Shown: positions 15,101-57,444, numbered from the stretch's first letter. The stretch: 64,000 bases of DNA from Terriglobia bacterium (GCA_963695545.1 OY968796.1:928001-992000), one strand, 5' to 3'. Notes: generated by a model from the sequence alone, not told the origin. Program-made: numbers and translations.

Positions 15101-18100
15101 GAGCTCAAGAACACCATCAACACGATGGTCGACCAGCTCAACGCGTTCGCCGCCGAAGTCACGCGCGTGGCTCGCGAGGTCGGCACTGACGGTAAGTTGG
15201 GCGGTCAGGCGCAAGTTCCTGGCGTCGCCGGCACTTGGAAAGACCTCACCGACAACGTAAACGTGATGGCCGCAAACCTTACGGAACAGGTCCGGGGCAT
15301 TGTGAAGGTCGTGACCGCCGTGGCAAACGGCGAGCTAACAAAAAAGCTCACGGTTCAGGCGAAGGGCGAAGTGGCCGCGCTCGCCGATACCATCAACAAC
15401 ATGACCGACACCCTGGCAACCTTCGCCGATCAGGTAACTACTGTGGCTCGTGAAGTCGGCGTGGAAGGTCGGCTCGGTGGCCAAGCGAACGTACCCGGCG
15501 CGGCCGGCACATGGAAGGATCTCACAGGCAACGTGAACCTCCTCGCCGACAACCTCACCAACCAGGTCCGCGCCATCGCGGAAGTCACCACCGCCGTGAC
15601 CAAGGGCGACTTGACTCGTTCGATTCAAGTCGAGGCCAGCGGCGAAGTGGCGGAGCTGAAAGATTACATCAACACCATGATCGACAATCTCCGCCTCACG
15701 ACCGACCGCAATAACGAACAGGACTGGTTGAAAACGAACCTCGCGCGGTTCACCGGAATGCTGCAGGGGCAACGAGATCTAGCAACCGTCGGCCGAATGC
15801 TTCTGTCCGAGCTCGCGCCGCTCGTCAGCGCTCAGCAAGGTGTGATCTATCAGATGGAGGACGAGGAAACCGGCAACATGGCCTTGCTCTCGGCCTTTGC
15901 CGATCGCGTGGAAGAAGGGCATCCCGATCAGTTGCGATCCGGCAGCGGCCTTGTCGGACAGTGCGCGGCCGAAAAGAGACGCATGCTCATTACCGATGTG
16001 CCGGCGCATGCGATCCCGATCCGCTCCGGATTGTTTGAAGCTGTCCCGCGGAACATCATTGTGCTCCCGGTTCTTTTTGAGGACAGGGTCAAGGCCGTCA
16101 TCGAATTGGCATCGCTGAGCGTCTTCACCCCCTCCCATCTAGCGTTCCTCGAGCAGCTCACTTCCAGCATCGGTATCGTGCTAAACAGCATTGAAGCCAC
16201 AATGCAGACGGAAGGCTTGCTGAAGCAGTCTCAACAGCTTGCCGCCGAGCTTCAAACCCAGCAAACCGAATTGCAGCAAACCAACGAGCAGCTTGCGCAA
16301 AAAGCCCAGCAGCTTGCCGAGCAGAACGTCGAAGTCGAGCGCAAGAACCAGGAAATTGAACAGGCCCGCAGAGCCGTCGAAGAAAAAGCCAAAGAATTGG
16401 CACTCACGTCCAAATACAAATCGGAGTTCCTGGCCAACATGTCACACGAGCTGCGCACACCGCTCAACAGCATTCTCGTGCTGGGCCAGCAACTCACCGA
16501 CAATCCGGACGGCAATTTGACGCTCAAGCAAGTGGAGTTCGCTCGCACGATTCATGGCGCGGGAACCGATCTCTTGAATTTGATCACGGATATTCTGGAT
16601 CTCTCGAAGATCGAATCCGGAACCGTCTCGGTCCAGGCGGAAGAAGTATTCTTCGCGAGCCTGCTTGATATGATCGCTCGCCCATTCCGTCACGAAGCTG
16701 AGGGTCGTCATCTCGATTTTGAAATTCAAACCGACCCGAGGCTCACCCGTAGTCTAGTCACCGACTCAAAGCGGTTGCAGCAAGTTCTCAAGAATCTGCT
16801 TTCCAACGCGCTCAAATTCACGGAACACGGAAGCGTTCGCTTGAGCGTGTACCCTGCCGAAAACGGCTGGAGCGAGAACCATCCGGTGCTCGGAAAGTTG
16901 GCCTCCGTGGTGGCCTTCGAGGTGTCGGACACCGGGATCGGAATACCGGTCGAAAAGCAGCGGCTTATCTTTGAGGCCTTCCAGCAAGCCGACGCGGGCA
17001 CTAGCCGTAAGTACGGCGGCACGGGTCTCGGACTTGCGATCAGCCGCGAACTCGCCGGTTTGCTCGGAGGTGAAATTCAACTACGCAGCGCTCCAGGCAA
17101 GGGCAGCACCTTCACGCTCTACTTACCGCAAACTTACGTTGGACCGTCATCCGGAATTGCGACGGCCGACGCCAAGGCTACCTTTGTGTCCCCCGCGCTT
17201 CGACCCTCGAGCGTTACAGTATCGGAGCGTCCCAACGAACAGATTCCCGACGACCGCGAAACTCTAACGCAAGACGACGCTATCCTCCTGATTGTAGAGG
17301 ACGATCCGCACTACGCGCGACTCCTCCGCGACCTGTCTCGCGACAAAGGCTTCAAGGTTCTCATCGCCACCCGAGGGACGGAAGCCTTGGAGCTGGCTCG
17401 CGAATTCCATCCCACCGCCATCTCGCTCGACGTGTTCTTGCCCGACATGTTGGGCTGGACCGTTCTGAATCATTTCAAGCAAGATCCCACGATGCGCCAC
17501 ATTCCGATTCAGATGTTGACTCTGGACGAAGACCGTCAGCATGGCTTGGCGAGCGGCGCATTCGCGTACGTGAACAAACCGACCTCGCCCGACGAACTGA
17601 ACGCTGCGTTCGCACGCATCAAGGAATACACAGCGCCGCGCCGCAAACGTCTGCTCGTGGTCGAAGACGATCCGAGCGAGCAGCTCAGCATTACCGAACT
17701 TCTCGGATATAACGATATCGACGTTCAGGTCGCTGCAACTGGCGCCGAGGCGCTCGACTCCGTCACCAACGAGTCGTTCGATTGCGTAGTCCTCGATCTG
17801 CGCCTTCCCGACATGTCCGGCTTCGACGTGCTCGAGCGTTTCCGCGAAAACCCATCGCTGAGCAATTTGCCCGTTGTGGTGTTCACCGGGAAAGATTTGT
17901 CGCCCGAGGAAGACGCGCGTCTGCACATGCTCGCGCGCAGCGTCGTCGTCAAAGGTGTGGAATCGCCGGAAAGATTGCTCGATGAAACGGCGTTGTTCCT
18001 GCATCGCGTGGTCACCGACCTTCCGCCCGAAAAGCAAAAAATGCTTGAGCGCTTGCACAATTCCGATGAAGCGCTCGTCGGAAAGAAGGTACTGGTCGTC

Positions 18101-18448
18101 GACGACGACGTCCGGAACATTTTCGCGCTTAGCAGCGTCCTCGAGCGCCGTGGCATGACCGTACTCACCGCCGGCACGGGCCGCGAGGCTATCGCCACGC
18201 TCGAGTCGACTCCGGACGTGGCTATCGTGTTGATGGATATCATGATGCCAGAGATGGACGGATATGAAACGATGCAGGTGATTCGCCAGAATACGTCATT
18301 TCGGCGATTGCCCATCGTCGCCTTGACCGCCAAAGCCATGAAAGGCGATCGCGAAAAGTGCCTCGAAGCCGGCGCATCCGAATATCTGGCAAAGCCGGTC
18401 AATACCGAGCAACTGCTCTCGGCCCTTAGAATGTGGTTCCATCGGTAG
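12131..18448 (+). CDS. Soluble poly-HAMP hybrid histidine kinase (HAMP repeats-GAF-HisKA-HATPase-3xREC), resembling fungal Nik1/Os-1 group III
   Basis: 11 ~92-aa repeats, GAF region, H-box [15 protein letters not shown]-box [22 protein letters not shown], three REC domains with Asp (SLDVFLP, VLDLRLP, LMDIMMP); no TM helix seen. Confidence 0.95.
12660..15700 (+). repeat. Coding tandem repeat, ~276-bp unit x11 (poly-HAMP); boundaries approximate
   Basis: [10 protein letters not shown] occurs 10 times plus one [10 protein letters not shown] at ~92-aa spacing; many synonymous differences between units. Confidence 0.9.
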
Positions 18449-18561
18449 AGGTCGCGGGCTCGATTTAGAGTTCGCCCCGAAAATGCTATCTTTGTTTGGT
18501 ATGGCCTGATTGATGTCGCTGCGTGTGAAACTTATCTTCTTTTGATTCGATGAGAGGACAG

Positions 18562-19659
18562 ATGAGCGACCACCAAAAGGTCAACATTCTCATGGTAGAC
18601 GATCAGCCTGCCAAGCTGCTCAGCTATGAAGTCATGCTCAAGGAGCTGGACGAGAGTCTCATTAAAGCCCATTCCGCCCGGGAAGCCCTCGATCAGCTGC
18701 TCAGGACCGATATTGCGGTCGTTCTGATGGACGTCAGCATGCCGGAACTCGACGGTTTCGAGCTGGCTGGCATGATCCGCGAGCATCCGCGATTTCAGAA
18801 GACCGCGATCATTTTCATCTCCGCCGTGTACCTAACCGATATGGACCGCCTTAAAGGTTATGAGCGCGGGGCGGTGGATTACATATCCGTTCCAGTTGTT
18901 CCGGAGCTCTTGCGAGCGAAAGTTAGCGTGTTCGCGGACTTGCATCGCAAAACCCGGCAGATGGAAAGCTTGAATCGCGAACTGCGAAGTCTTTCGGCGC
19001 GCCTGATCGCGACTCAGGATGAGGAACGCCGGCGAATCGCTCGCGATTTGCACGATAGCGTCGGCCAATTAGTCGCCTCGCTCTCGATGAATAACGGACT
19101 GGCTTTGATGCAAGCCGAGAATCTCAGCCCTTCCGCTGCCAACGCGTTGCGGCAAAATTCCGACCTGGTTCAACAACTTTCCAAAGAGGTCCGCACCATC
19201 TCCCATCTGCTTCATCCGCCTCTTCTCGATGAAATTGGCCTGTTGCCTGCCATAAAAATGTATGCGGACGGGTTCGCCGAACGCAGCAACCTGAAAGTCA
19301 CTGTGGAATTTTCGCCTGAGATCGGCCGCCTCGCTCCCAATGCGGAGATTTCGGTATTTCGGATCGTGCAAGAATGTTTGACCAACGTTTATCGCCACTC
19401 AGGAAGCGAAACGGCGCACATCAGAATTCATCCCGACGAGAAGAATGTGCTTACGATTCAGGTCATTGACCACGGCAAGGGAATGCCGAAGCGGCAGCTC
19501 ATCTCCATGTCTCTGGGAAGGAACGACGGCGTTGGCCTGAGCGGCATGCGGGAACGGGTAAGAGAGCTTGGGGGTGTGCTTGACATACAATCCGACGAAA
19601 ATGGCACTACGGTCACGGCTGCATTTCCGGTCACCTCAGAGGCGGCAGTTGGTGCGTGA
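18562..19659 (+). CDS. REC + NarX/UhpB-type (HisKA_3) histidine kinase
   Basis: NILMVDD...VLMDVSMP; EERRRIARDLHD; FRIVQECLTNVYRH; DHGKG; GVGLSGMRERV. Confidence 0.9.
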   Translation: MSDHQKVNILMVDDQPAKLLSYEVMLKELDESLIKAHSAREALDQLLRTDIAVVLMDVSMPELDGFELAGMIREHPRFQKTAIIFISAVYLTDMDRLKGYERGAVDYISVPVVPELLRAKVSVFADLHRKTRQMESLNRELRSLSARLIATQDEERRRIARDLHDSVGQLVASLSMNNGLALMQAENLSPSAANALRQNSDLVQQLSKEVRTISHLLHPPLLDEIGLLPAIKMYADGFAERSNLKVTVEFSPEIGRLAPNAEISVFRIVQECLTNVYRHSGSETAHIRIHPDEKNVLTIQVIDHGKGMPKRQLISMSLGRNDGVGLSGMRERVRELGGVLDIQSDENGTTVTAAFPVTSEAAVGA

Positions 19660-22504: not shown

Positions 22505-22954
22505 TCAGGCGTGGGATTTGCGCTCCACGAGCAGCAAGTGCTCGCACGCGAGAATTGTTTCTCCATGTTGATTGATCGCTTGGCAGGATTCGACCACGAT
22601 GCCGTGCGCGGGACGCTTGGGATCGTCGCGCTTTTCCTTGATCGCAACGACCACGTGAATCGTGTCTCCGATAAATACCGGCTTGATGAATCGAAGGCGA
22701 TCGTAGCCGTACGACATCGCGCGCGGATTGATGGCGCCCGCCGTCAATCCCACGGCGATGCTAAACACCAGTGTGCCGTGGGCCATGCGCTGACCGAAAG
22801 GCTGCTTGCTGCACCATTCCGCGTCCATGTGGTGCGGGAAAAAATCGCCGGTTTGTCCGGCGTGCAGCACGATGTCGGTTTCTGTAATGGTTCGCCCGGC
22901 GGTTTCGCGCCGCGCGTTGACCGTGTAATCCTCGAAATACTGTTCGCTCAGCAT
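22505..22954 (-). CDS. MaoC-family (hot-dog) dehydratase
   Basis: [12 protein letters not shown]...[30 protein letters not shown]. Confidence 0.9.
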
Positions 22955-23018
22955 GCGTGTGTCCGCTCCGGGCGCCAACCACTCTAGCGCACCGGCCGGC
23001 CCCCGGCTTGATCTTTAA

Positions 23019-23047
23019 TTGACAATTGCTTCCATAAAATTTAGATT
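23019..23047 (+). promoter_or_regulatory. Sigma70-type promoter of the SBP/CoA-transferase operon
   Basis: TTGACA (23019-23024) - 17 nt - TAGATT (23042-23047) in an AT-rich divergent gap. Confidence 0.65.
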
Positions 23048-23174
23048 TACTGGTAAAATCGCCGAACTGAGAGTTTATCAAATAGGGTGAGTCCGGGCTA
23101 ATTCGAGATTCGTGTTGGTTACGGTTCAAACGCGCGCCGCCGTCAAACAGGGGCGCGTTCGGTTTTGAGGCCAG

Positions 23175-24350
23175 ATGAGCGTCGACCGGGTCGTTCGACT
23201 GCGTGGCACTGCGTGGTGTCACACTCGGGGTTTTCTCCCGATGGTGGCGACGGCGCAAAGGTTTGCCGAGGCGCATCCCGGCTTCGAAATAGAATGGGAT
23301 GCCAGATCGTTGCAGGAATTCGCCGACTCCTCGATTGCGGAGTTGGCGCGGCAGTACGACTTGATGGTCATCGACCATCCCTCCATCGGACAAGCCGCCG
23401 AGGAAAACGTTCTCCTTCCCCTTAACGAATGGATTCCCGAAGAGTTCCTGGGCATGCAAGCCGCGGCCTCGGTGGGAGCCTCGCATGCAAGTTACGCATA
23501 CGCAGGCCGACAGTGGGCCTTGGCGATTGACGCGGCCGCGCCAATTGCCGGATGGCGCCCGGACCTGTTGAGGCGAGCGGAAGCAGCGATTCCGCGGACG
23601 TGGTCGGAGCTGCTGGAGCTCGCGGGACGCGGCCTGGTGACGTTTCCAGCGAAGGCCATCGACAGCCTGATGCACTTTTACATGTTCTGCGACGCTCTGG
23701 GCGCGGGCCCGTTCCGAGAAGACAACGCTGTGGTGAGCGAAGAAATCGGGATTCGGGCGCTCAAGATGCTCGGCCAGCTTTTCTCGCTTTGCGACGCCCA
23801 ATGTTTGAAGAGAAATCCTATTGCGACCTGGGAGCTCCTCTCCACGAGCGACACGGTGGCTTACTGTCCCTTCGCATACGGATATTCGAACTATTCTCGG
23901 GCAGGCTACTCGACGCATGCGCTCGAGACCGGCAACCTGATCGCGACCGATGATGGACTTCTCTTCCACTCCACGCTGGGTGGAGCGGGCCTGGCGATCT
24001 CCGCGCGCTGCGCGCACAAAGCGATCGCCGCGGAGTACGCCCAGTTTGTCGCTAGCCCGCATTGCCAGAGCACGCTCTACTTCGATTCAGGCGGGCAGCC
24101 GGGGAATCGAACAGCCTGGATGGATGACGAGGTCAACCGGCGCTGCATCAATTTTTTCAGGAACACGCTGCACACTTTGGAACGGGCCTACGTGCGGCCG
24201 CGTTTCGCTGGATATCTCGAATTCCAGGAACACGCTGCCGTCGCGGTGCACCGATACCTGGCTGCGGGGCGGCCCGAAGAGGACGTGATTGCAGAAATGA
24301 ACGATCGGCTGCGCGAAGCGCGGTCAGAGAAATGGCGAGGTGTGGCATGA
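23175..24350 (+). CDS. Sugar SBP family-1-fold protein without signal peptide
   Basis: YDLMVIDHP, QWALAIDAA, STLGGAGLAISA; N-terminus MSVDRVVRLRG has no hydrophobic leader. Confidence 0.75.
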   Translation: MSVDRVVRLRGTAWCHTRGFLPMVATAQRFAEAHPGFEIEWDARSLQEFADSSIAELARQYDLMVIDHPSIGQAAEENVLLPLNEWIPEEFLGMQAAASVGASHASYAYAGRQWALAIDAAAPIAGWRPDLLRRAEAAIPRTWSELLELAGRGLVTFPAKAIDSLMHFYMFCDALGAGPFREDNAVVSEEIGIRALKMLGQLFSLCDAQCLKRNPIATWELLSTSDTVAYCPFAYGYSNYSRAGYSTHALETGNLIATDDGLLFHSTLGGAGLAISARCAHKAIAAEYAQFVASPHCQSTLYFDSGGQPGNRTAWMDDEVNRRCINFFRNTLHTLERAYVRPRFAGYLEFQEHAAVAVHRYLAAGRPEEDVIAEMNDRLREARSEKWRGVA

Positions 24351-25510
24351 AACCATTGGATGGGCTCTTTGTCGTGGATCTAAGCCAATTTCTCTCGGGG
24401 CCGTCCGCGTCGCTGCGCTTGGCGGATTTGGGCGCCCGCGTGGTGAAGGTGGAGCGGCCGGACGGCGGAGATCTTTGCCGCCAACTCTACATCTCCGACC
24501 TCAAGCTGGACGGGGACAGCACGCTGTTTCATTCCATCAATCGCAACAAGGAGAGTTTCGCCGCGGACCTGAAAAACCCAAAGGACTGCCGGCGATTGTG
24601 GTCGCTGCTGGATCACGCTGACGTGATGATCCACAATTTTCGTCCCGGCGTGATTGACCGGCTGGGGTTCAGCTATGAGGCCGTCAGCAAAAGAAATTCG
24701 CGGCTGGTATACGGAGAGATCAGCGGCTACGGCAAGTTGGGGCCGTGGCGACAAAAACCGGGACAAGATCTGCTGGTGCAATCTCTGTCGGGGCTGCCGT
24801 GGCTGAGCGGTGATGCGAGCCAGCCGCCGATCCCATTCGGCATCGCCGTGGCCGATCTCTACGCAGGCGCTCACCTGGTGCAGGGAATTCTTAGCTGCCT
24901 GGTGCGCAGAGGAATATCCGGGAAGGGCGGAAAGGTTGAAGTCAGTTTGCTTGAATCTATTCTGGATCTTCAATTCGAGTTGCTGACGACCTATCTGAAC
25001 GATGGCGGCCGATTGCCGCAGCGAAGCAAGGTGAATAGCGCGCACGTTTACCTGGGAGCTCCGTATGGGATTTATCCGACTTCCGACGGTTACATCGCAC
25101 TGGCGATGAGCTCCGTGCCCCAGTTGGGCAAACTGCTGAACTGCTCGCAACTCCTTGCTTATAAGAGTCCGGACGCGCTCTTCACGCAACGCGACGAGAT
25201 CAAGCAGATTCTGATCGATCACCTGAAAAAGAAAACCACGAAGCACTGGCTCGGCGTGTTGGAGCCCGCCGACGTGTGGTGCTCGGAAGTGTTGACTTGG
25301 CCGCGCTTGCTTGAGCACGAGGCGTTTCGTCTGCTGGACATGGTGCAGGAAGTGAAACGAAGCAACGGCGTGAAGTTAAAGACGCTGCGCTGTCCCATTC
25401 GGATTGACGGCCAGATCATGAAAAACGAACTGGGCGCTCCGCGCCTGGGCGCCGATACAAATCGATTATTGCGCGAGTTTGCGGGGGAGGCCCGCGGAAT
25501 CGCCGGATGA
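24347..25510 (+). CDS. Family III CoA-transferase (CaiB/BaiF)
   Basis: PLDG..VVDLS...GP, LADLGA.VVKVE, NRNKES, HNFRPG, catalytic-Asp region AVADLYAG, APRLG; ATGA overlap with upstream gene. Confidence 0.9.
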   Translation: MKPLDGLFVVDLSQFLSGPSASLRLADLGARVVKVERPDGGDLCRQLYISDLKLDGDSTLFHSINRNKESFAADLKNPKDCRRLWSLLDHADVMIHNFRPGVIDRLGFSYEAVSKRNSRLVYGEISGYGKLGPWRQKPGQDLLVQSLSGLPWLSGDASQPPIPFGIAVADLYAGAHLVQGILSCLVRRGISGKGGKVEVSLLESILDLQFELLTTYLNDGGRLPQRSKVNSAHVYLGAPYGIYPTSDGYIALAMSSVPQLGKLLNCSQLLAYKSPDALFTQRDEIKQILIDHLKKKTTKHWLGVLEPADVWCSEVLTWPRLLEHEAFRLLDMVQEVKRSNGVKLKTLRCPIRIDGQIMKNELGAPRLGADTNRLLREFAGEARGIAG

Positions 25511-26760
25511 CCGGACGCAAAACATTCAGGATCGCTGTCCGGAAATTCGGCCCTTTTGAATCGGCGATTCAAAAGCAGTGGGATTCGTTTAATTCCTTCG
25601 GGCAAACCGGCCTCACATTGGAAGCAGTTGCTTTTGATTTGCAGCCGCTTTCGAAATCCCTCTTCGATCACGAAGGCCTCGTGCGCGGAGACTGGGACGT
25701 CGCCTTTCTCGACACGGATTGGCTGGCGCACGCGCACGCATCGAAGGCGCTCCTGAATTTGGCACCGTACGTGAAGGCCGCTCCTCCTAGCGATTTCCCA
25801 CACGGATGGAGCGACTCCCTCTTGCGGTTGCAATCCATCGAGGGCGAAATTCTGGGCCTTCCCTATCACGATGGGCCGGAATGTTTGATCTACAGGAAGG
25901 ACCTGTTTGACGATCCGCGGGAACAACGCGCATACGAAGGACGCTTCGGAGAGAAGTTGCGCGTTCCGCAGACATGGACGGAGTTCCGGCGAGTGGCGAG
26001 CTTTTTTCAGCGCCCGCAGGAGAAGTTGTTCGGCACGGCTGTCGCGGCTTATCCCGACGGCCACAATTCGGTCTACGATTTTCTGCTTCAGCTTTGGACG
26101 CGAGGCGGCGAACTTGTCGATGATGCCGGCGAATTTCACGTGGATACCGCGCAAGCCGTCGAGGCGCTTGAATTTTACCGCGACATTCTTCAAGACGCTT
26201 CCGTGGTTCATCCGCGCTGCGCGGAAATGGATTCGGTGAAATGCGGCTTGGCGTTCGTGAAGGGCGAAATCGCCATGATGGTGAACTGGTTCGGTTTTGC
26301 GGCGATGGCCGAGACCATTGAGAATTCCCGCGTCCGCGGAAAAGTGGATATCGCCGCCATACCTCGCGCGGATGGCTGTGCGTCCTGTTCGCTGAATGTG
26401 TACTGGGTGCTGGCCATCGCCGCGGGAAGTCCGCACCGCGAGGCCGCCTACCAATTCCTGCGGCACGCGATTTCCCCGGCAATGGACAAACTGCTCACGC
26501 TCGAAGGCGCGGTGGGATGCCGCAAATCAACGTGGGGCGACGCGGACGTAAATCGAATGGTGCCGTTTTACAACCGTCTCGATGATCTTCACGCACACGC
26601 GCGCGAACTGCCGCGGCTCGTGGAATGGCCCGAAATCGCATCCGTGATCGATCGAATGATCGTGAAGGCAACGGGCACGCGCGACTCGGCGCAGAAAATT
26701 GCCGGCGAAGCGCAGCGAGAACTCAATCACGTTTCGTCTCCGAAGCCCACGATTCTTTGA
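25507..26760 (+). CDS. Sugar SBP family-1-fold protein without signal peptide
   Basis: GLPYHDGPECLIYRKDLF, VPQTW.EF, F.KGEIAMM.NW; N-terminus MTGRKTFRIAVRKF has no leader; ATGA overlap. Confidence 0.75.
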   Translation: MTGRKTFRIAVRKFGPFESAIQKQWDSFNSFGQTGLTLEAVAFDLQPLSKSLFDHEGLVRGDWDVAFLDTDWLAHAHASKALLNLAPYVKAAPPSDFPHGWSDSLLRLQSIEGEILGLPYHDGPECLIYRKDLFDDPREQRAYEGRFGEKLRVPQTWTEFRRVASFFQRPQEKLFGTAVAAYPDGHNSVYDFLLQLWTRGGELVDDAGEFHVDTAQAVEALEFYRDILQDASVVHPRCAEMDSVKCGLAFVKGEIAMMVNWFGFAAMAETIENSRVRGKVDIAAIPRADGCASCSLNVYWVLAIAAGSPHREAAYQFLRHAISPAMDKLLTLEGAVGCRKSTWGDADVNRMVPFYNRLDDLHAHARELPRLVEWPEIASVIDRMIVKATGTRDSAQKIAGEAQRELNHVSSPKPTIL

Positions 26761-26772
26761 AGGAGTTCCGGA

Positions 26773-27801
26773 ATGGACGCGTCAATTCTGACTGGCGTCG
26801 GAATCATACTGGCCGCGGGGATTCTTCAGGGGATTTTCGCGCTGCCCATGAAATTCGCGCGCGGCTGGAACCACGAGAATATCTGGCTGGTCTTCGCATT
26901 CACCGGACTGGTTGTTTTCCCGTGGCTGCTGGTCGCGGCGACGATACCCCACGCAATCGGCGTGTATCACCTCACGTCGTGGAAGGCCGTGCTGGCAATT
27001 TTTGGTTTCGGCGTGCTGTGGGGCGTGGGAGCGACGCTCACGGGCGTGGGGTTGAAACAGCTTGGAATCGGTTTGGGGCTCTCCATTATTCTTGGGCTCA
27101 GCGCGTCGGTCGGTTCGTTGGTTCCCCTGATCATCTTGGCGCCTCAAAAACTCGCGACGCATCAGGGGCACCTCTTCTTGCTGGGCACCGTGGTGATGCT
27201 TGCCGGCGTGGCATTCTGTGCGCGCGCCGGCGCGCGCCGCGATGCCCAGCAGAGATCGCAGACCGACCCGCAAGGCGCGCGACGGACCTCTTTCCTTTAC
27301 GGCCTGTTGATTTGCATTTGCTCGGGGATACTTTCAGCCAGCCTTAACTTCAGCTACGCCTTCGGAGGTGAAGCGATCGACCACGCCCGCGCTTTGGGCG
27401 CTTCCTCGGCGTGGGCGGCGAATATTGTGGCGGCTCCGGCGACGAGCGGCGGGTTCATCGCGAATCTGATTTTTTGCGTCTACATGCTGAGGAAAAATTC
27501 ATCCGCATCTTTGTTCATGCGGGCCGGGTCGACCGTGAATTGGCTGCACGGAACTCTGATGGGTGCGTTTTGGTTTGGCGGTCTGGCGCTGTACGGTCTG
27601 GGATTATCGCGGTTGGGCAACCTGAGCGCGGTGGTGGGATGGCCGGTGCTGATGGGAACCATCATTCTGGCCAGCAACGCGGCGGGTTATCTGAGCGGAG
27701 AGTGGAAGCAGGCCGGCAGACGCTGTGGCATCTTGCTGGGGGTGGGAATGGCAATTGTGCTTGGGGCGTTGTGGATACTTGGTATGGCGCAACAGGCTTG
27801 A
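26773..27801 (+). CDS. RhaT-family (L-rhamnose/H+ symporter-like, DMT) transporter
   Basis: G.F..PMK..R.W..ENIW, GVLWGVG, LG.GLG.SI..G, GW...M, GEWK; ~10 hydrophobic segments. Confidence 0.8.
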   Translation: MDASILTGVGIILAAGILQGIFALPMKFARGWNHENIWLVFAFTGLVVFPWLLVAATIPHAIGVYHLTSWKAVLAIFGFGVLWGVGATLTGVGLKQLGIGLGLSIILGLSASVGSLVPLIILAPQKLATHQGHLFLLGTVVMLAGVAFCARAGARRDAQQRSQTDPQGARRTSFLYGLLICICSGILSASLNFSYAFGGEAIDHARALGASSAWAANIVAAPATSGGFIANLIFCVYMLRKNSSASLFMRAGSTVNWLHGTLMGAFWFGGLALYGLGLSRLGNLSAVVGWPVLMGTIILASNAAGYLSGEWKQAGRRCGILLGVGMAIVLGALWILGMAQQA

Positions 27802-27833
27802 CGGCGTTATCTTGCAGCGGGGTTATCTAGGCC

Positions 27834-28613
27834 ATGAAAAAAAGAACATCGCAAAGCTACTCGGTCCCGGGACTTGAAAAGGGCTTGGATGCTCTCGAAG
27901 CCCTCGCGAGCGCCAACGTGTCGGAATCGCTCACGCAACTCGCGCGGCGCCTGAATCGGACATCCAGCGAATTGTTCCGGATGATCGCGGTTCTCGAACG
28001 TCGAAACTATATTGCCCGCGATCCGGCGTCGGAAGGCTACCACCTCACGCTCAAGCTTTACGAATTGGCGCACACCCATTCGCCCGTCAATCAACTGCTC
28101 AAAGCAGCCGCACTGCCCATGCAGGAGCTCTCGGACATGGTGCTGGAATCGTGCCATCTCTGCGTGCTCAGCGGTCCGCTGCTCACCGTAATCGCGCAAG
28201 CCGAGAGTCCCGAGGCCGTTCGGCTTTCGGTTGAAGTCGGATACAAGGCTCTTCCTCTCAACACGGTCTCCGGCCGCCTAATGGTGGCTTTCCTGAGCCC
28301 GGAGGAGCGCGAGACCTTTCTGACGACGGACACTTTTTTTCGGAAGCTGGCGCCGCCCAAACAAAAGCAGCTTCGAACCGAACTGACGAAGATCCGCAGC
28401 GACGGCTATCACGTTGCGCCCAGCAGCAGGCGAACAGGACTGGACGCCTCTTGTCTGGTTGGAAATCCGAGGGTCGGTGTGCTCGCTGCGCTCGGGGTTC
28501 CCTTCATTCCCGGTGGCGCAAACGACGGAAAAGAGCGCAAGTTGATTCCAGTAATTCAGCGCTATGCGGATCGAATCACCGCGGCGGTGGGCCTGTCGAA
28601 GTCATCCATTTGA
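27834..28613 (+). CDS. IclR-family transcriptional regulator
   Basis: YSVPGLEKGLD.LE.L, HTH, Y.L.LKL..L, ESCHL. Confidence 0.9.
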   Translation: MKKRTSQSYSVPGLEKGLDALEALASANVSESLTQLARRLNRTSSELFRMIAVLERRNYIARDPASEGYHLTLKLYELAHTHSPVNQLLKAAALPMQELSDMVLESCHLCVLSGPLLTVIAQAESPEAVRLSVEVGYKALPLNTVSGRLMVAFLSPEERETFLTTDTFFRKLAPPKQKQLRTELTKIRSDGYHVAPSSRRTGLDASCLVGNPRVGVLAALGVPFIPGGANDGKERKLIPVIQRYADRITAAVGLSKSSI

Positions 28614-28619
28614 CGCCGC

Positions 28620-29729
28620 TCAATTCTGGTCAAGAGGAAGCGGCTCGGCTTCTCGGGCGCTCGATGCGTAAGCAGCCTCGACCAGCGCCATCGTTTGGTA
28701 GGCGTCCTCGAAATGTGACGGAAGCTCGGAGACGCTTCCCTCCACGTACGCTTGCAGGGCACCCATGCTTCCCACGAATGCATCGGGAAACCAATTCCCG
28801 CGAATCGGGCAGGATTGCCATCCATCTTTTATTTCGCTTCTCTGAATGTATTCGAGTGAATCGGGTTTGCCCTTTGGATAGTCGAGATTGATGCCGAGCG
28901 TCGCGCGCATCGAGCCCGCAGTTCCTTCCCATTGGACAAAACTGCGCTGCTGCTTCTCGCCGTAGTCGTGGCCATGGTTGGTGGCAACGAAAACCCGTTT
29001 CGAGTCGCCATAATCGAGGATCATCACGGATTTGGTCGCGGCCAATTTCGGGTACGCCGGGTGACGCACGGTCTTGGCGTAAATGCCGCGAGGGTTTCCG
29101 AACCAGGAGCGGATCAGATCCAGATAATGAATGCTGTGGTACAGAATCTCGAGGCGCGGCGCCGTGGCCAGGAACGTCCACAAGTGCCAGGGCGTATAAT
29201 TCCGGACCTGCGCTTCGAAATCGTGACATTCACCGAGCAGCCCGCCCGCCGCTAGCGCGCGGGCCGCGAGGTTGCAGGGCGCATAACGAAGCTGAAAATT
29301 GACCGCGGCGACCAACGATTTCCGACGGCACAAATCGCGTATCTCCGTCGCTTCGGCAAGGGTCTCGCCCATGGGCTTTTGCATCAGAACGGGAACGCCG
29401 TCTGGTAGATCGACCAAAATCCCCGGAATCCCGGAAGCCGGCACGGCAACGTCGTAGACGGCGTCGGGCGGCGCGAAGGCCACCGCTTCCTTTATGGAGG
29501 TGAAGCTACTGGGAACGCCTGAGCGTCGTGCGAGTTCCTCCGCTTTTCCGGCGACGATATCGATGAGCGCGAGAACAGGAAAGCCCGCTTTGGCATATGC
29601 TGGAAGATGCGCCGCGCTGACGATGCCGCCGGCACCGATAATAATGATTGGGCGCACTCGCTCGGGGCGAGGCGGCTGCGCAGCGAGGGCAACCGTTTTC
29701 CAGCTATCTATCGGTAACTCGTTTGTCAA
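28620..29729 (-). CDS. Gfo/Idh/MocA-family oxidoreductase
   Basis: IIGAGGIV..AHLPAY, VLMQKPMG, VNFQLRY, HSIHYLD. Confidence 0.9.
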   Translation of the reverse strand: MTNELPIDSWKTVALAAQPPRPERVRPIIIIGAGGIVSAAHLPAYAKAGFPVLALIDIVAGKAEELARRSGVPSSFTSIKEAVAFAPPDAVYDVAVPASGIPGILVDLPDGVPVLMQKPMGETLAEATEIRDLCRRKSLVAAVNFQLRYAPCNLAARALAAGGLLGECHDFEAQVRNYTPWHLWTFLATAPRLEILYHSIHYLDLIRSWFGNPRGIYAKTVRHPAYPKLAATKSVMILDYGDSKRVFVATNHGHDYGEKQQRSFVQWEGTAGSMRATLGINLDYPKGKPDSLEYIQRSEIKDGWQSCPIRGNWFPDAFVGSMGALQAYVEGSVSELPSHFEDAYQTMALVEAAYASSAREAEPLPLDQN

Positions 29730-29938: not shown

Positions 29939-29967
29939 TTGACATTGTTTCCCTATGGGAATAGTTT
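29939..29967 (+). promoter_or_regulatory. Sigma70 promoter with palindromic operator in the spacer
   Basis: TTGACA-17-TAGTTT; spacer holds TTTCCCTATGGGAAT (29948-29962, TTCCC-N3-GGGAA). Confidence 0.7.
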
Positions 29968-30090: not shown

Positions 30091-30948
30091 TTGCGGGAGA
30101 GCGTGAGCCGGGATCAGACCTTGCAAGAAAAAGTCTCCTGGTTGCAAAGGCAGGCGAACCGAATTCGCATTTCAAGCCTTCGGATGGTGCACGCCGCCAA
30201 TCTGGGCCACCCCGGCGGCGATCTTTCCTCAGCCGACATTTTGGCGACTCTTTATCTGGCAGTTCTGCGCGTCGACAAGACGCGGCCCGACGCGCCGGAT
30301 CGCGATCGCTTCATCATGAGCAAGGGACATTGCTCTGGAGCGCTTTATTCGACGTTGGCCGCGGCGGGAATTCTGCAGCAATCCTCGTTGGACACGTACA
30401 TGAAACCGCTCTCGCCGCTGAACGGACATCCGGATCGAAACAAAGTTCCGGGTGTCGAAGCCAATACCGGACCTCTGGGTCACGGGTTGCCGATCGCCGT
30501 CGGCTGCGCGATGGCCGGGAAAATCGATTCCGCGGCGTGGCGCGTATTCGTGCTCACCGGCGATGGCGAACTACAGGAAGGCAGCAATTGGGAAGCGGCC
30601 ATGGCCGCAGCGCACTACAAACTCGACAATTTGACCCTAATCGTCGATCGCAACGGGATCCAGCAGGGCGACTTCACGGAAAACACGATCCGCATGGAGC
30701 CGCTTGCGGACAAGTGGCGCGCTTTTGGTTGGAGCGTGCGTGAAGTGAACGGCAACGACCCCGCTGGGCTGCTTGCGTGCTTTGAAAGCTTGCCGGCGGA
30801 AACGGGAAAACCCACCTGTGTGATTGCACACACGGAAAAAGGATACGGCGTCTCTTTCATTCGCAATCGGCCTGAGTGGCATCACCACGTCCCCACTGCG
30901 GCAGAGCTTGAGGCCGCGATTCGCGAGCTTGAGGCGCGCGCGGAGTGA
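30091..30948 (+). CDS. Split transketolase, N-terminal ThDP-binding subunit (AptA-like)
   Basis: GHPGG.LS, DRFIMSKGH, GHP, TGPLGHG, GDGELQEGSNWEA...N. Confidence 0.9.
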   Translation: MRESVSRDQTLQEKVSWLQRQANRIRISSLRMVHAANLGHPGGDLSSADILATLYLAVLRVDKTRPDAPDRDRFIMSKGHCSGALYSTLAAAGILQQSSLDTYMKPLSPLNGHPDRNKVPGVEANTGPLGHGLPIAVGCAMAGKIDSAAWRVFVLTGDGELQEGSNWEAAMAAAHYKLDNLTLIVDRNGIQQGDFTENTIRMEPLADKWRAFGWSVREVNGNDPAGLLACFESLPAETGKPTCVIAHTEKGYGVSFIRNRPEWHHHVPTAAELEAAIRELEARAE

Positions 30949-31892
30949 GTGAACTTTTCGATTGCCGGGACGCCTTTTCTCAAACGCTCGAGGAACTCGC
31001 CGCGAACGACCCACGCGTCGTCGCCGTCGTGAACGATTCGGTGAGTTCGACGAAGCTGAAGAATTTCAGCAAGCGGTTTCCCAATCGCTTCATCAACGTC
31101 GGGATCGCTGAGCAGAACATGGTGGGCGTGGGCGCGGGCCTGGCCAACGGAGGCAAATTACCGTTCGTCTGCGCGGCTTCCTGCTTTATGACGGCGAGAG
31201 CCATGGAGCAGATCAAAGTGGATCTCGGATACTCGCGCTACAACGTGAAACTCTGCGGAATGTCCAGCGGAATGGCATACGGAGAATTGGGCCCGACGCA
31301 TCACTCGATTGAAGACCTGGCCTGGATGCGCGCGATTCCGAATCTGACGGTCGTCGTTCCTGCGGACCCGATTGAAACGCGATCGGCGATGGAGGCCATC
31401 GCGCGGTACGAAGGTCCGGTGTTTTTTCGTCTGAGCCGCATGCCTGTGCCCAATATCCATCCGCGCGATTACCGGTACGAAATCGGCAAGTCGGTGCGCC
31501 TGCGCGAAGGCGACGACATCACTTTGGTCGCGAACGGCGTACTGGTGTCCCGCGCGCTGGAAGCGGCCGATGTGCTCGAACGGAGTGGCATCTCAGCTCG
31601 CGTGATCAATATGTCCACCGTGAAGCCGCTCGACCGCGCCGCGATTATTGATGCGGCGACGACTACCGGAGGGATCGTAACGGTGGAAGAACACTCGATC
31701 TACGGCGGACTCGGCGGCGCGATTGCGGAAGTTGTGGCAACGACTTGCCCGGTGCGAATGCGAATTCTCGGCGTACCCGGCGAATTTGCGCCGACAGGTA
31801 CTGAAGAATTTCTGCTCGAGCATTTTGGATTGACGGCGCAAGGCATCGCGAAGGCAGCCGTTGAACTTCTCGAGGTCGTGCGACGCGTATGA
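30945..31892 (+). CDS. Split transketolase, C-terminal subunit (AptB-like)
   Basis: NVGIAEQNMVG, GPTHHSIED, VKPLD, VEEHS..GGLG; GTGA overlap. Confidence 0.9.
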   Translation: MSELFDCRDAFSQTLEELAANDPRVVAVVNDSVSSTKLKNFSKRFPNRFINVGIAEQNMVGVGAGLANGGKLPFVCAASCFMTARAMEQIKVDLGYSRYNVKLCGMSSGMAYGELGPTHHSIEDLAWMRAIPNLTVVVPADPIETRSAMEAIARYEGPVFFRLSRMPVPNIHPRDYRYEIGKSVRLREGDDITLVANGVLVSRALEAADVLERSGISARVINMSTVKPLDRAAIIDAATTTGGIVTVEEHSIYGGLGGAIAEVVATTCPVRMRILGVPGEFAPTGTEEFLLEHFGLTAQGIAKAAVELLEVVRRV

Positions 31893-33379
31893 GCGCGCAG
31901 TACATTCTGGCGATCGATCAGGGCACGACTAACACCAAAGCTGTGTTGGTCGATGCCGCGGGACGTCCGGTTTTTCGGGCCTCGGCGCCGGTTCGCGTCA
32001 CGAGCCCTCGGCCCGATTGGGTGGAGCAAGACGCGCGGGAAGTGTGGGACAGCGTTCGGCGAGTGATCGAAGAATCCCTCGCGCATTGCTCTCCCGCGAA
32101 GCCTGCCGGAATTGGAATCTCCAATCAACGAGAGACAGTTTTGGCTTGGGACCGCGCCACTGGCAATCCATTGGCGCCCGCCATCGTGTGGCAATGCAGA
32201 CGATCCGCGGCGCTGTGCGAGCAGTTGGCCAAGGATGGATGGGGCTCGCTCTTGCGCGAACGCACGGGCCTCGGGCTCGATCCTTTATTCTCCGCCGGCA
32301 AGTTCGCTTGGCTTCTCGAAAATATTCCGGGCCTGCGGGCGCGCGCGGAGGCCGGCGAAATTTGCTTCGGTACCATGGACAGTTGGTTGATCTGGAATCT
32401 GACGGGAGGCGCGCGCCACGCCTGCGATTTCAGCAACGCCTCTCGCACACAGCTGCTGAATATTTCGACCGGAGCGTGGGACCCCGAGTTGCTTTCGCTG
32501 TTTGGCGTTCCGCCGGCCGCGCTGCCCCGCCTGGTGCCTTCGAGTTCATTGATCGGAGAAACCATCGCGATCGGCGCGTTACCCGCTGGGATTCCGATTG
32601 CCAGCGCCTTGGGAGATTCTCATGCGGCGTTGGCCGGCCACGCATCTTTCAAATCGGGCACCGTGAAATCAACGTACGGCACTGGCTCGTCGTTGATGAC
32701 GCTGGTGGACGCGGCGAATTATCGCACGGCCGATCTGGCCACGACGATCGCCTGGCGTGTGCAAGGCGCGACGCAATATGCCATCGAGGGAAATATTTCG
32801 ATGAGCGGCGCCGCGGTGCAATGGCTGGGCGAGTTCCTCCGCATGCCCAACCCTATCGAAGATGCGGCGCGACTTGCGGAGAGCGTGGAAAGCAGCGACG
32901 GCGTCTATTTTGTTCCGGCGATGATTGGCCTTGGCGCGCCGCATTGGGACAGCGCCGTGCGCGGCGCAGTCTTCGGGCTTGGCCGCACAAGCACCGTGGC
33001 GCATTTGGCTAAAGCCGCCGTGGAGGCCGTCGCCTTTCAGGTGCGCGACGTTTTCGATGCGATGGAGCGGGCAGCGGGCTCGTCGCTTCCGATGCTGCAT
33101 GCCGATGGCGGCGCGACTCACAATGATCAGCTGATGCAATTTCAGGCCGATGTGCTGGGCCGGCCGGTGATGCGTTCCATTTGCCCGGAGCTTTCTGCGC
33201 TGGGCGCCGCTTGGTTTGCGGGAATCGCATTGGGCACTTGGGGCTCGCTCGAGGCGCTGGAGAAACTCAAATTCGACGCACAGGTTTTCGAGCCGCGCAT
33301 TTCTGAAATTGAAAGAGAGCAGCGCTACGGCGGCTGGAAGCTTTCGGTGGAACGCGCGCGCCATCGATCGTCGAATTGA
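31889..33379 (+). CDS. FGGY carbohydrate kinase (glycerol-kinase-like; candidate apulose kinase)
   Basis: AIDQGTT, ISNQRET, WQCRR, D.SNASRT, TYGTG, GLGAPHW, DGG. Confidence 0.85.
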   Translation: MSAQYILAIDQGTTNTKAVLVDAAGRPVFRASAPVRVTSPRPDWVEQDAREVWDSVRRVIEESLAHCSPAKPAGIGISNQRETVLAWDRATGNPLAPAIVWQCRRSAALCEQLAKDGWGSLLRERTGLGLDPLFSAGKFAWLLENIPGLRARAEAGEICFGTMDSWLIWNLTGGARHACDFSNASRTQLLNISTGAWDPELLSLFGVPPAALPRLVPSSSLIGETIAIGALPAGIPIASALGDSHAALAGHASFKSGTVKSTYGTGSSLMTLVDAANYRTADLATTIAWRVQGATQYAIEGNISMSGAAVQWLGEFLRMPNPIEDAARLAESVESSDGVYFVPAMIGLGAPHWDSAVRGAVFGLGRTSTVAHLAKAAVEAVAFQVRDVFDAMERAAGSSLPMLHADGGATHNDQLMQFQADVLGRPVMRSICPELSALGAAWFAGIALGTWGSLEALEKLKFDAQVFEPRISEIEREQRYGGWKLSVERARHRSSN

Positions 33380-33419
33380 ACGGAAACTGATAGAGCGTTT
33401 GGCGCGGCAGAGAAACAAC

Positions 33420-35000
33420 ATGCTCGGCACTGAAAACCAAAACGATCGCGCGGCCGCGGCTTCCGCAGACGCCGTGCTCGAAGCTCGAGATGTCGTTCAG
33501 CAGTATGGCGGGATCACCGCGCTCAAAGGCGTCACCTACCGTGTGCTGCGTGGTCAGGTAAATGTGCTGATCGGAGAAAACGGCGCGGGGAAATCGACGC
33601 TCATGCGCATTCTGGCGGGAGTCGAAAGACCAATCAACGGAACCGTTCTGCTGGATGGGCGCCCCGTCACTTTCCGGCGCAGCACGGACGCCGCACGACA
33701 AGGAATCGCCATGGTGCACCAGGAATTGAACGTGCTTCCCAATCTCGACATCGCGGAAAACATCTTTGCCGGCCGGGAGCTTTGCTCTGCGTACGGATTC
33801 ATCAAGGCCGCGAAGCAGCGCCAAGCGAGTGCGGCCGCATTGAAAACGCTTGGCCATCCGATGAGTACGCGCACGCTTGTGGGGCAGCTTTCGTTGGGCC
33901 GCCAGCAGATTACCGAACTCGCGCGATCGCTGGCGCACGAAGCGCGCGTGCTGATTCTGGACGAGCCGACGTCCGCGCTTAGCCGGACCGAAGCGGAGAC
34001 GCTGTTCGCGGTCATCGAGGACCTCAAGAGAAACGGCGTCTCCATCGTTTACATCTCTCACCGGCTAAATGAAATGTTGCGCTTGGGCGATTTTTTCACT
34101 GTTCTGCGCGATGGCCGCGTCGTGGGCAACGCGCCGCGCGCGGAGGTGGATCGGCGCTGGATCGTCGAATGTGTAACGGGGCGTGCCGCGCATAATATCG
34201 CGGCGTCGGGAACGGTTGCGGCCGGACGCGAGAGCTTGCGCGCCGAGTCCCTCAACGTCGTGGGCAGCACCCGAGACAGTGCCACGCGCCCCTTGCTTGA
34301 GGACATTTCATTCTCGGTGTCTGCCGGAGAAATTCTGGGCATTTACGGCTTGCTCGGGGCGGGCCGCACGGAACTTCTTGAAGCGCTTGCAGGCGTAAGG
34401 CCCGTCACGCGAGGAAGCATATGGGTTGGCGGCGATAAGCTGGCGCCCGGATCGGTCACGCGAGCCGTCGCTCGTGGCATCGTCTTGATGCCTGAGGATC
34501 GCCAGTCCGACGGCCTGATTCCATCGTCGTCGATCCGGGAGAATATCAGCCTGGCGGACTTCAATGGGCTAACGGTGGGCCCATTTCTTTCTCGGAAAAA
34601 AGAGTCGGCTAAAGTACGCCTGATCGCCGAGCAAGTGAAACTGAAGGTGGGCGATTGTGAACTTCCCGTAACCTCGCTGAGCGGTGGGAATCAGCAAAAG
34701 GTTATGCTCGCACGGTGTCTGATGCGCTCGCCTTCGATTCTGCTTCTGGATGAACCGACGCGCGGCGTGGACGTGGGCGCCAAAGAGGAAATCCATCGTA
34801 TCCTGCGCGAGCTGAAATCGACCGGCGTTTCGATCATTTTCACCTCCTCGGAAATCGAAGAAACCCGTTCGCTGGCCGACCGCATTCTCGTCCTCTCAGG
34901 CGGCCGGATATCGGCAGAGCTCTCGTTGGGCGATGCCTCTGAGGAAATATTGTTCGCCGCAGCATGCGCTCATCTCGAAGCGCAGGGCGCTGTTCAATGA
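33420..35000 (+). CDS. Monosaccharide ABC transporter ATPase (RbsA-like, two domains)
   Basis: GENGAGKS, LDEPTSAL, YISH, LSGGNQQKV, DEPTRGVDVG. Confidence 0.9.
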   Translation: MLGTENQNDRAAAASADAVLEARDVVQQYGGITALKGVTYRVLRGQVNVLIGENGAGKSTLMRILAGVERPINGTVLLDGRPVTFRRSTDAARQGIAMVHQELNVLPNLDIAENIFAGRELCSAYGFIKAAKQRQASAAALKTLGHPMSTRTLVGQLSLGRQQITELARSLAHEARVLILDEPTSALSRTEAETLFAVIEDLKRNGVSIVYISHRLNEMLRLGDFFTVLRDGRVVGNAPRAEVDRRWIVECVTGRAAHNIAASGTVAAGRESLRAESLNVVGSTRDSATRPLLEDISFSVSAGEILGIYGLLGAGRTELLEALAGVRPVTRGSIWVGGDKLAPGSVTRAVARGIVLMPEDRQSDGLIPSSSIRENISLADFNGLTVGPFLSRKKESAKVRLIAEQVKLKVGDCELPVTSLSGGNQQKVMLARCLMRSPSILLLDEPTRGVDVGAKEEIHRILRELKSTGVSIIFTSSEIEETRSLADRILVLSGGRISAELSLGDASEEILFAAACAHLEAQGAVQ

Positions 35001-36073: not shown

Positions 36074-36079
36074 TCCGCA

Positions 36080-37030: not shown

Positions 37031-37048
37031 ACGATTGAGGTGGTTGCC

Positions 37049-45684: not shown

Positions 45685-45739
45685 ACTCTAGATCACCAGG
45701 GCGTTATTGTCAATACCAACTTAGTTTCTCTATTGGAAC
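45685..45739 (-). promoter_or_regulatory. Sigma70 promoter of the TonB receptor with upstream operator
   Basis: Minus strand TTGACA (45713-45708)-17-TAGAGT (45690-45685); motif TTTCTCTATTGGAAC at 45725-45739. Confidence 0.7.
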
Positions 45740-50742: not shown

Positions 50743-50823
50743 GGCCTCCTGGGAACCAATCATTCAAAAACGAAGCGCACTCGGCGCGTGGCCGGAGAAA
50801 CCACGCAAATGTGCATGTCTGGT

Positions 50824-50853
50824 ATGAAACATTTTCCTATGAGAAACTACGCT
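50824..50853. promoter_or_regulatory. Operator in the divergent GH78/GH127 gap
   Basis: TTTTCCTATGAGAAA at 50832-50846, inside a possible ATGAAA-18-TACGCT promoter. Confidence 0.6.
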
Positions 50854-50954
50854 ACGAATCTGAATCTGGCAACTGCCTGCTCTTGCGACCGTGAAAACGG
50901 GGTTGGCCTGGTCGTAAGTGACTCTTCATATCCACTCGGAGCCGCTCTGCTGAG

Positions 50955-52799: not shown

Positions 52800-52845
52800 G
52801 CGACCCGAGAGACGCGCATCACCCACGCATTTGCGGTGAAGACTC

Positions 52846-54144: not shown

Positions 54145-54151
54145 CGCCGCG

Positions 54152-57397: not shown

Positions 57398-57444
57398 AAA
57401 TTTATTTCTCCACCCGCATCTCACGATACAGGAAGCGGCGCGAG

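Follow-up and report, generated by a model that had tools for sequence, protein, structure and literature searches.

Positions 22505–29729 of a 64,000-nucleotide stretch of a Terriglobia bacterium genome hold seven genes that are best read as a self-regulated catabolic module, for a sugar that possibly lies beyond ordinary pathways. The stretch, called the window below, corresponds to G000:C1:928001-992000 of a single-contig genome of 4.16 Mb. The genes encode a MaoC-type (R)-hydratase/dehydratase, a family III (CaiB/BaiF) coenzyme A (CoA) transferase, a Gfo/Idh/MocA oxidoreductase (Gfo), a RhaT-family symporter, an IclR-family regulator, and two cytoplasmic proteins with the fold of solute-binding proteins, here named SBPa and SBPb. 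We propose tentatively, at somewhat less than even confidence, that the module breaks down an L-fucose-type neutral sugar, or a modified version of one, by a dehydration route that cycles CoA and in which the binding-fold proteins would act as enzyme partners. The proposal builds on gene content, conservation, natural gene fusions, folds and missing signal peptides, from which we infer the substrate and every chemical step.

Gene content and conservation of the module

Domains were called with Pfam, functional specificity was judged by NCBIfam equivalog cut-offs, and structures were predicted with AlphaFold2 (AF2) and compared by Foldseek. The first-pass annotation of this DNA had described a module of CoA-transferase, MaoC, Gfo/Idh/MocA, RhaT and IclR genes adjoining a glycan locus. 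Pfam places all five genes within 22505–29729, and the neighbouring locus carries genes of the glycoside hydrolase (GH) families GH42, GH29 and GH127, GH43-like, GH39-like and two GH78-type genes, and a TonB-dependent receptor. The gene list itself was incomplete. It overlooked SBPa and SBPb, the most unusual part of the module, which occupy about one third of it and share an operon with the CoA-transferase.

SBPa (23175–24350, plus strand; Pfam SBP_bac_1/SBP_bac_8) opens the operon. Its 3' end shares 19 nt with the CoA-transferase gene (24332–25510, plus strand), whose own stop overlaps the start of SBPb (25507–26760, plus strand; SBP_bac_1/SBP_bac_8, E 1.5e-22) in an ATGA. The RhaT-family sugar/proton symporter (26773–27801) and the IclR-family regulator (27834–28613, with both the HTH_IclR and the IclR_C domain) follow on the same strand. 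MaoC (22505–22978, minus strand) diverges from SBPa across the promoter region 22979–23174, and Gfo (28620–29729) also lies on the minus strand. Antisense to SBPa there is an open reading frame (ORF) of 433 codons (22761–24062, minus strand) with no Pfam match, a GC-rich shadow ORF; long antisense ORFs such as this one mislead gene calling by longest ORF in the window.

The CoA-transferase matches CoA_transf_3 (PF02515) over its full length, residues 9–376 covering profile positions 1–366 of 366 (E 2.2e-90), and has 35 PDB relatives at E<=1e-10. It is the single match in the genome at E<=1e-20 and the only family III member there. Seven NCBIfam CoA-transferase models, with specificities that include succinate-glutarate, oxalate, formyl-CoA, mesaconate and carnitine, all score under their cut-offs, the best reaching 196.2 bits against 750. 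The stretch AVADLYAG contains D175, which does not vary in 50 CoA-transferase sequences and is a candidate for the catalytic Asp that forms the anhydride intermediate in formyl-CoA transferase.

MaoC, 157 residues as the longest ORF, matches MaoC_dehydratas (PF01575) with 80 bits against a cut-off of 27 (E 1.4e-22). Its match to PDB 4ffu (E 3e-61) begins at residue 9, and the true start is probably the ATG at that residue, near position 22954. The residues of the stretch G44-D45-x-x-P48-x-H50 are invariant in 33 orthologues, D45 and H50 presumably being the Asp/His pair of the hydratase motif. MaoC is the sole copy in the genome at E<=1e-5. Many related loci carry two CoA-transferases or a second, more distant MaoC, where the window genome has one of each.

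RhaT matches PF06379 over its full length (E 1.1e-26) with 94.4 bits against a cut-off of 27 and so belongs to the family, while its best score against the NCBIfam RhaT equivalog, 237.5 bits, is below the cut-off of 369. Gfo, a putative sugar 1-dehydrogenase that would use NAD(P), has an N-terminal Rossmann domain (PF01408, 41.5 bits) and a C-terminal domain (PF22725, 28.8 bits), both over cut-off, and its translation contains the nucleotide-binding loop GAGG.

A scan for SBPa relatives, with one genome per species, returned 565 stretches, of which the best 80 loci were retained. These SBPa-centred loci come from Acidobacteriota, Chloroflexota, Bacteroidota (Pedobacter, Hymenobacter, Pontibacter, Mucilaginibacter and Arcticibacter), Paenibacillus, a Neiella, and a Chthoniobacterales metagenome-assembled genome; those closest to the window module are metagenome-assembled genomes of Acidobacteriota. 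Co-occurrence was counted in those 54 of the 80 loci that span 15 kb or more, with orthologues defined by identities of at least 55% for MaoC, 44% for Gfo and 45% for SBPb. A CoA-transferase stands beside SBPa in 52 of the 54 loci, as does MaoC, and Gfo is found in 31, SBPb in 29 and a RhaT- or FucP-type transporter in 25. The IclR cluster occurs in 30 of the 80 loci. The module genes are clustered far beyond chance. The first-pass annotation had named conservation of the neighbourhood as a check on its proposal; the cluster is kept across phyla, and the objection that the gene set does not hold together as a cluster therefore falls away.

The module is patchy within lineages. Of 301 genomes sampled from the host phylum, 3 carry it, the window genome included; of 121 genomes from the family to which the Hymenobacter locus belongs, 15 have SBPa. 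Bacteroidota operons run in the order SBPa, CoA-transferase 1, CoA-transferase 2, SBPb, Gfo, MaoC and a FucP-type transporter of the major facilitator superfamily (MFS). In the Neiella locus a crotonase takes the place of MaoC and is followed by an AldA-like aldehyde dehydrogenase, the sole crotonase case.

No description of the module turned up in full-text searches of the literature. It is not mentioned in the accessible passages of the GapMind paper (PMC9007349) or of a preprint on rhamnogalacturonan II (RG-II), and the available part of the ApnO paper makes no link to CoA. New here are the SBPb family, the fusions with enzyme partners, the contrast between SBPb and lactonase or dehydratase genes, the FucP evidence, and the independence of the module from a neighbouring block with a RuBisCO-like protein (RLP).

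Solute-binding folds in the cytoplasm

Both SBPa and SBPb have the two-lobe MalE-like fold in their predicted structures (AF2 predicted local distance difference test scores of 95.7 and 94.0). The best Foldseek match of each is MalE3 (6dtq), with template modelling (TM) scores of 0.81 for SBPa and 0.83 for SBPb. The sugar-binding proteins of ATP-binding cassette (ABC) importers, MalE3, SmoF (7ofy) and TMBP (1eu8), share this fold at TM 0.80–0.84 and the Pfam families SBP_bac_1/8. The top Foldseek matches of the two proteins contain no enzyme and are ABC sugar-binding proteins, for example MalE3 and SmoF. A PDB sequence search gave no close relative of SBPa, SBPb or Gfo, and the ESM Atlas returned only clusters labelled 'ABC transporter substrate-binding protein'. 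SBPa and SBPb are only remotely related to each other.

The likeness to ABC binding proteins ends with the fold. Signal peptides are absent from SBPa and SBPb of the window, and the orthologues examined, 73 for SBPa and 46 for SBPb, start at the first conserved strand, with no leader or lipobox. The Pfam scan found no permease or ATPase gene within 22505–29729. SBPa and SBPb thus lack what characterises an ABC solute-binding protein, namely a secretion signal or lipobox together with permease and ATPase partners, and some members are instead fused to cytoplasmic enzymes. Thousands of such proteins are annotated as 'multiple sugar transport system substrate-binding protein'; the label needs correction, as it names transport proteins that have neither an export signal nor a transporter partner.

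The fusions assign the two proteins to different enzymes. SBPa stands N-terminal to CoA_transf_3 in three protein clusters and is joined to an enzyme of the enolase superfamily (MR_MLE) in one (P0130). SBPb stands N-terminal to a Gfo oxidoreductase of the module family in five clusters, and is fused to an unrelated zinc alcohol dehydrogenase in one. The Gfo half of fusion P0136 is 45% identical to the window Gfo over 343 residues (E 1e-96). The MR_MLE half of P0130 could be placed neither in the FucD type nor in the Chloroflexota type, with only 24–25% identity to each. Gene order follows the same pairing: SBPa lies immediately upstream of the CoA-transferase in 59 of the 69 loci that hold both, and SBPb immediately upstream of Gfo in 19 of 36. 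The fusions suggest a separate enzyme partner for each of the two, the dehydrogenase for SBPb and the CoA-transferase for SBPa, and we regard the two pairs as putative physical partners. A homologue on S. meliloti pSymB (41% identity) also has a CoA-transferase gene upstream, in a plasmid gene table that is incomplete.

More distant relatives, at 26–40% identity, are fused to LacI-type DNA-binding regulators (P0132 and P0139), showing that proteins of this fold branch are able to function as cytoplasmic ligand-binding or sensor domains. These fusions would suit an explanation in which SBPa and SBPb are cytoplasmic sensors or leftovers and the CoA enzymes are linked to the sugar genes by mere neighbourhood. 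We consider this most improbable. SBPa and SBPb keep 50–60% identity across phyla with many invariant polar residues, the CoA-transferase gene overlaps a binding-protein gene at both of its ends, ten protein clusters are fusions to enzymes and not to regulators, and the module already has its own IclR. The invariant polar residues of SBPa include three arginines and two histidines; invariant in SBPb are six tryptophans as well as Asp, Glu, Asn and His. The invariant polar residues would line the ligand cleft.

The candidate sugar and the proposed route

The transporters provide the first indication of the substrate. The MFS protein of the Bacteroidota operons passes the fucP equivalog cut-off and is the best FucP match of the genome in four of five genomes; a FucI over cut-off is absent from four of the five. 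The first-pass annotation had spoken of a 6-deoxyhexose-type symporter, and the co-located transporters are indeed of the RhaT or FucP type. Neighbours of the module in other loci include relatives of L-fuconate dehydratase (PDB 1yey, E 6e-104), a fuconolactonase-like amidohydrolase, an AldA-like aldehyde dehydrogenase and rhaM. The glycosidases that adjoin it in related loci belong to GH29, GH78, GH106, GH38 and GH127 or are apiosidase-like.

The window genome has further routes for such sugars. At 2.48 Mb it encodes RhaI-like (496 bits), rhamnulokinase-like (476 bits) and RhaD-ADH (1013 bits) proteins, the last over its equivalog cut-off, and at 2.52 Mb a UxaA-type dehydratase, a short-chain dehydrogenase/reductase, an Amidohydro_2 lactonase and rhaM form an oxidative fucose-type set. 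RhaA was not found in the window genome. The presence of canonical rhamnose and fucose-type routes elsewhere suggests that the module probably serves a different or modified sugar. The transporters, the neighbouring enzymes and these other routes together point to a neutral L-fucose or 6-deoxyhexose-type sugar, possibly a variant of it. L-rhamnose is a less likely substrate, as RhaI, rhamnulokinase and RhaD-ADH are already encoded at 2.48 Mb. The rhamnose genes (G000:C1:2474001-2492000) are accompanied by GH106 and GH28, and the UxaA-type set (G000:C1:2516001-2536000) lies beside a 2-keto-3-deoxygluconate kinase and a 2-keto-3-deoxy-6-phosphogluconate aldolase.

In the route that we propose, RhaT would import the sugar, and Gfo with SBPb would oxidise it at C1 to a lactone or acid. 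The CoA-transferase with SBPa would convert the sugar acid to its CoA thioester, and MaoC would eliminate water, or an alcohol, across C2–C3 of the thioester. CoA would be handed on by transfer, in the manner of CaiB/CaiD with carnitine, and the resulting 2-keto-3-deoxy acid would pass to downstream steps encoded elsewhere. SBPa and SBPb may be substrate-capture subunits, or surrogates for the lactonase and dehydratase steps. The skeleton of this route, with oxidation of a deoxyhexose, activation of the acid by CoA and dehydration by MaoC, had been put forward in the first-pass annotation and fits the data; the pathway idea as a whole is partly supported.

In its chemistry the proposed route comes closest to the CaiB/CaiD carnitine system of E. 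coli and to the CoA pathways for itaconate and mesaconate. In CaiB/CaiD, a family III CoA-transferase loads a hydroxy acid with CoA, a hydratase/dehydratase works on the resulting thioester, and CoA is not consumed but recycled through transfer. A family III CoA-transferase, a hydratase/dehydratase acting on a thioester and cycling of CoA are also what is proposed for the module. The two systems differ in that the module hydratase is a MaoC hot-dog protein and not a crotonase, in the sugar context, and in the presence of two binding-fold proteins and Gfo; the match to the L-carnitine CoA-transferase model reaches only 87.5 bits, where 413 would be needed. The window module has no transferase paired with a crotonase-fold hydratase and so falls outside the CaiB/CaiD type, although it may work alike.

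The non-phosphorylative L-fucose pathway proceeds by a dehydrogenase, an L-fucono-1,5-lactonase, an L-fuconate dehydratase, a 2-keto-3-deoxy-L-fuconate dehydrogenase and a hydrolase, with no CoA. Relatives of fuconate dehydratase, the fuconolactonase-like amidohydrolase, rhaM, FucP/RhaT transporters and fucosidases are all found beside the module. The known route is CoA-free, however, and the window module has neither lactonase nor dehydratase, which sets it apart from this pathway. In the oxidative deoxyribonate pathway CoA enters by way of a beta-keto-acid cleavage enzyme. That pathway has neither the pair of CoA-transferase and MaoC nor the binding-fold proteins. With its glyceryl-CoA (PMC9007349) it nevertheless sets an example of an oxidative sugar-acid route that includes a CoA thioester.

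Lactonase and dehydratase genes are distributed in a way that bears on the role of SBPb. A lactonase lies beside the module in 9 of the 54 loci and a sugar-acid dehydratase in 10; the window module has neither, such genes being 1.6 Mb away. None of the 29 loci with SBPb has the lactonase, compared with 9 of the 25 that lack SBPb, and the dehydratase counts are 1 of 29 and 9 of 25, respectively, a contrast that is a lead and not a statistic, since it rests on related genomes and seven of the lactonase loci come from one Chloroflexota clade. This pattern fits a role of SBPb, and perhaps of MaoC by its action on the thioester, as a replacement for the lactonase and dehydratase.

The dependence of that contrast on one clade is the first of several points that weigh against the proposed route. 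The Chloroflexota loci carry a lactonase and a dehydratase beside the module, so that the CoA steps there may follow the 2-keto-3-deoxy acid and not replace the dehydratase. The closest relatives of the CoA-transferase act on the small dicarboxylates oxalate, glutarate, hydroxymethylglutarate and mesaconate, and those of MaoC are PaaZ and the itaconyl-CoA and mesaconyl-CoA hydratases; none is a sugar-acid enzyme. All these matches score far below the equivalog cut-offs, and the relatives carry little information on a sugar-acid substrate. Gfo has no close characterised relative (best PDB E 2.4e-8), and in the window it lies on the opposite strand, sharing its upstream region with a transketolase operon. 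The fusions might mirror gene adjacency alone. FucI and the module are not complementary: in the 121-genome sample 15 genomes hold SBPa, 6 hold FucI, and 3 of these 6 hold both. Non-orthologous displacement of FucI by the module is unsupported by these numbers.

Several of these points would suit a place for the CoA enzymes downstream. In that case the CoA-transferase with SBPa would act on a 2-keto-3-deoxy acid, or on a C3–C5 hydroxy or dicarboxylic cleavage product, and MaoC would work as in the itaconate and mesaconate pathways. In those pathways (Ict/Ich/Ccl and Mct/Mch), a family III CoA-transferase is combined with a MaoC-family hydratase. The module MaoC matches RipB/Ich with 68.8 bits and mesaconyl-CoA hydratase weakly, and its CoA-transferase matches succinyl-CoA:mesaconate CoA-transferase with 163.6 bits, scores that are far under the equivalog cut-offs of 340 and 700; the module also differs from these pathways in its neutral-sugar transporters. 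The characterised relatives, with oxalate, glutarate, hydroxymethylglutarate, mesaconate and itaconyl-CoA as substrates, agree with such a downstream role. So do the Chloroflexota and some Paenibacillus loci that have a lactonase plus an MR_MLE or UxaA-type dehydratase, the existence of the SBPa-MR_MLE fusion, the Neiella crotonase in place of MaoC ahead of an AldA-like aldehyde dehydrogenase, and the two CoA-transferases and two MaoC genes of many loci. On the other hand, a citramalyl-CoA (HpcH/HpaI-type) lyase, which those pathways have beside transferase and hydratase, was seen neither in the scanned ORFs of the window nor in the loci examined, and the Bacteroidota operons (SBPa, two CoA-transferases, SBPb, Gfo, MaoC, FucP) have no dehydratase. 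We judge a downstream role unlikely, though it deserves to be kept in mind beside the proposed dehydration of the sugar-acid thioester.

The first-pass annotation had started from an O-methylated sugar. 2-O-methyl-L-fucose or 2-O-methyl-D-xylose from RG-II would be oxidised, activated with CoA and dehydrated across C2–C3 to a 2-methoxy-enoyl-CoA, hydrolysis of which would free methanol independently of oxygen. RG-II-type neighbours (GH127, GH78-like, apiosidase-like, GH29 and GH106) are in keeping with this, and the ordinary rhamnose and fucose-type routes in the genome make a modified sugar plausible. Genes for MtaA/CmuA-like methyltransferases lie beside the module in two loci, L016, where there are two copies, and L076; but they are found in these two only, and would themselves be the demethylase. 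A thioester, moreover, would aid removal of the C2 proton and not hydrolysis of the 2-methoxy enol ether. The 2-O-methyl version is thus distinctly unlikely, and a 3-O-methyl sugar would be the better fit to elimination by MaoC. The methyltransferase-like genes (L016:5187-7482 and L076:16646-17962), which have the uroporphyrinogen decarboxylase (URO-D) fold and adjoin the module, hint at methyl-ether handling; L016 also has a radical-SAM/ferredoxin gene.

A more far-reaching form of the proposed route is doubtful, though not far-fetched. Two transporter-type families may have been recruited into the cytoplasm as obligate enzyme partners, SBPb of a sugar dehydrogenase and SBPa of a CoA-transferase, either as capture subunits or as new binding-fold enzymes that replace lactonase and dehydratase. 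With MaoC they would make up a CoA-dependent non-phosphorylative route for a rare or O-methylated 6-deoxy sugar, beyond the standard isomerase and dehydratase pathways. If true, oxidative sugar catabolism, a CoA-free process in textbooks, would gain a branch that runs through CoA thioesters, and the module would be a clear case of solute-binding-fold proteins partnering enzymes in the cytoplasm and not transporters. The module recurs in plant-polymer degraders of soil and peat, and may explain the mineralisation of rare pectic or methylated deoxy sugars there.

Promoter control and the surrounding glycan island

The promoter region between MaoC and SBPa (22979–23174) has an inverted repeat at 23129–23159 with arms of 10 nt that are 90% complementary. 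A different element, TTNYCTATKRRAA, was read by eye from four promoter regions of the window; exact 10-mers common to the promoters had yielded no operator. A motif search of the window finds TTNYCTATKRRAA at 29949–29961, 45726–45738, 50833–50845 and 60503–60515 only. The number of sites expected by chance from shuffles is 0.06, but the pattern was derived from these same four sites and is therefore a description and not a test. TTNYCTATKRRAA is probably the operator of the regulator of the glycan locus. That the module promoter lacks the locus operator, as the first-pass annotation had stated, holds post hoc, TTNYCTATKRRAA being missing from the MaoC/SBPa intergenic region; its absence agrees with a module under its own control. 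The upstream region that Gfo shares with the transketolase operon does carry TTNYCTATKRRAA, at 29949. The sites lie upstream of this transketolase operon, divergent from Gfo, and of the GH29 and GH127/RLP operons, and the fourth is between the large GH78 gene and a hybrid regulator.

Next to Gfo, the region 30091–38458 holds genes for a split transketolase, an FGGY kinase resembling GlpK, an ABC importer for sugars (ATPase, permease and RbsB-like binding protein) and a fucose-isomerase-C-like protein, which is weakly similar to the sulfoquinovose isomerase SftI (E 1.3e-31). This region looks like a transketolase-type pathway for a rare sugar. Two other loci, L002 and L019, also have the transketolase and kinase close to the module.

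At 48220–57457 a block of genes encodes GH78-like and GH127 proteins, the RLP, an OiaK-like four-carbon-acid-sugar kinase, an anion-type MFS transporter and an Asp/Glu-racemase-like protein. It could encode a route of the apionate type or one for a different branched sugar acid, for example aceric acid. This raises the question of whether the module serves the same purpose, that is, a route for apiose or for the branched acidic RG-II sugar aceric acid, together with the RLP, kinase, MFS and racemase-like genes at 52846–57457. In L005 the block of GH78-like, GH127, RLP, kinase, MFS and racemase genes is contiguous with MaoC, SBPa, the CoA-transferase and SBPb, and in Arcticibacter the RLP, kinase and racemase genes close a single operon that starts with SusCD and continues with the module and FucP. 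The RLP and kinase are present in 9 of the 54 loci, from three phyla, and score 443.8 and 469.3 bits, below the cut-offs of 700 of the OiaX and OiaK equivalogs. Against this, just 3 of 10 module-bearing genomes searched have the RLP, the transporters of the module operons are neutral-sugar types, and the carboxyl of aceric acid sits on a carbon that bears no hydrogen, where elimination of the MaoC type would not be expected. A joint route is accordingly very unlikely. A dependence of the module on RLP and kinase as a general rule was rejected on the same count of 3 in 10, and we treat the RLP block as a common neighbour that would serve a different sugar from the same glycan, not as part of the module.

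The window also encodes several regulators. A hybrid regulator at 60886–61986 joins an IclR helix-turn-helix to a Peripla_BP_4 sensor domain; such hybrids also occur at L019:14835-16073, L030:14609-16078 and L035:14831-16057, beside GH127/RLP blocks of Acidobacteriota. At 12131–18448 there is a hybrid histidine kinase of 2105 residues, with 11 HAMP repeats, a GAF domain, HisKA/HATPase and three receiver domains, and it is followed by a receiver-HisKA_3 kinase at 18550–19659.

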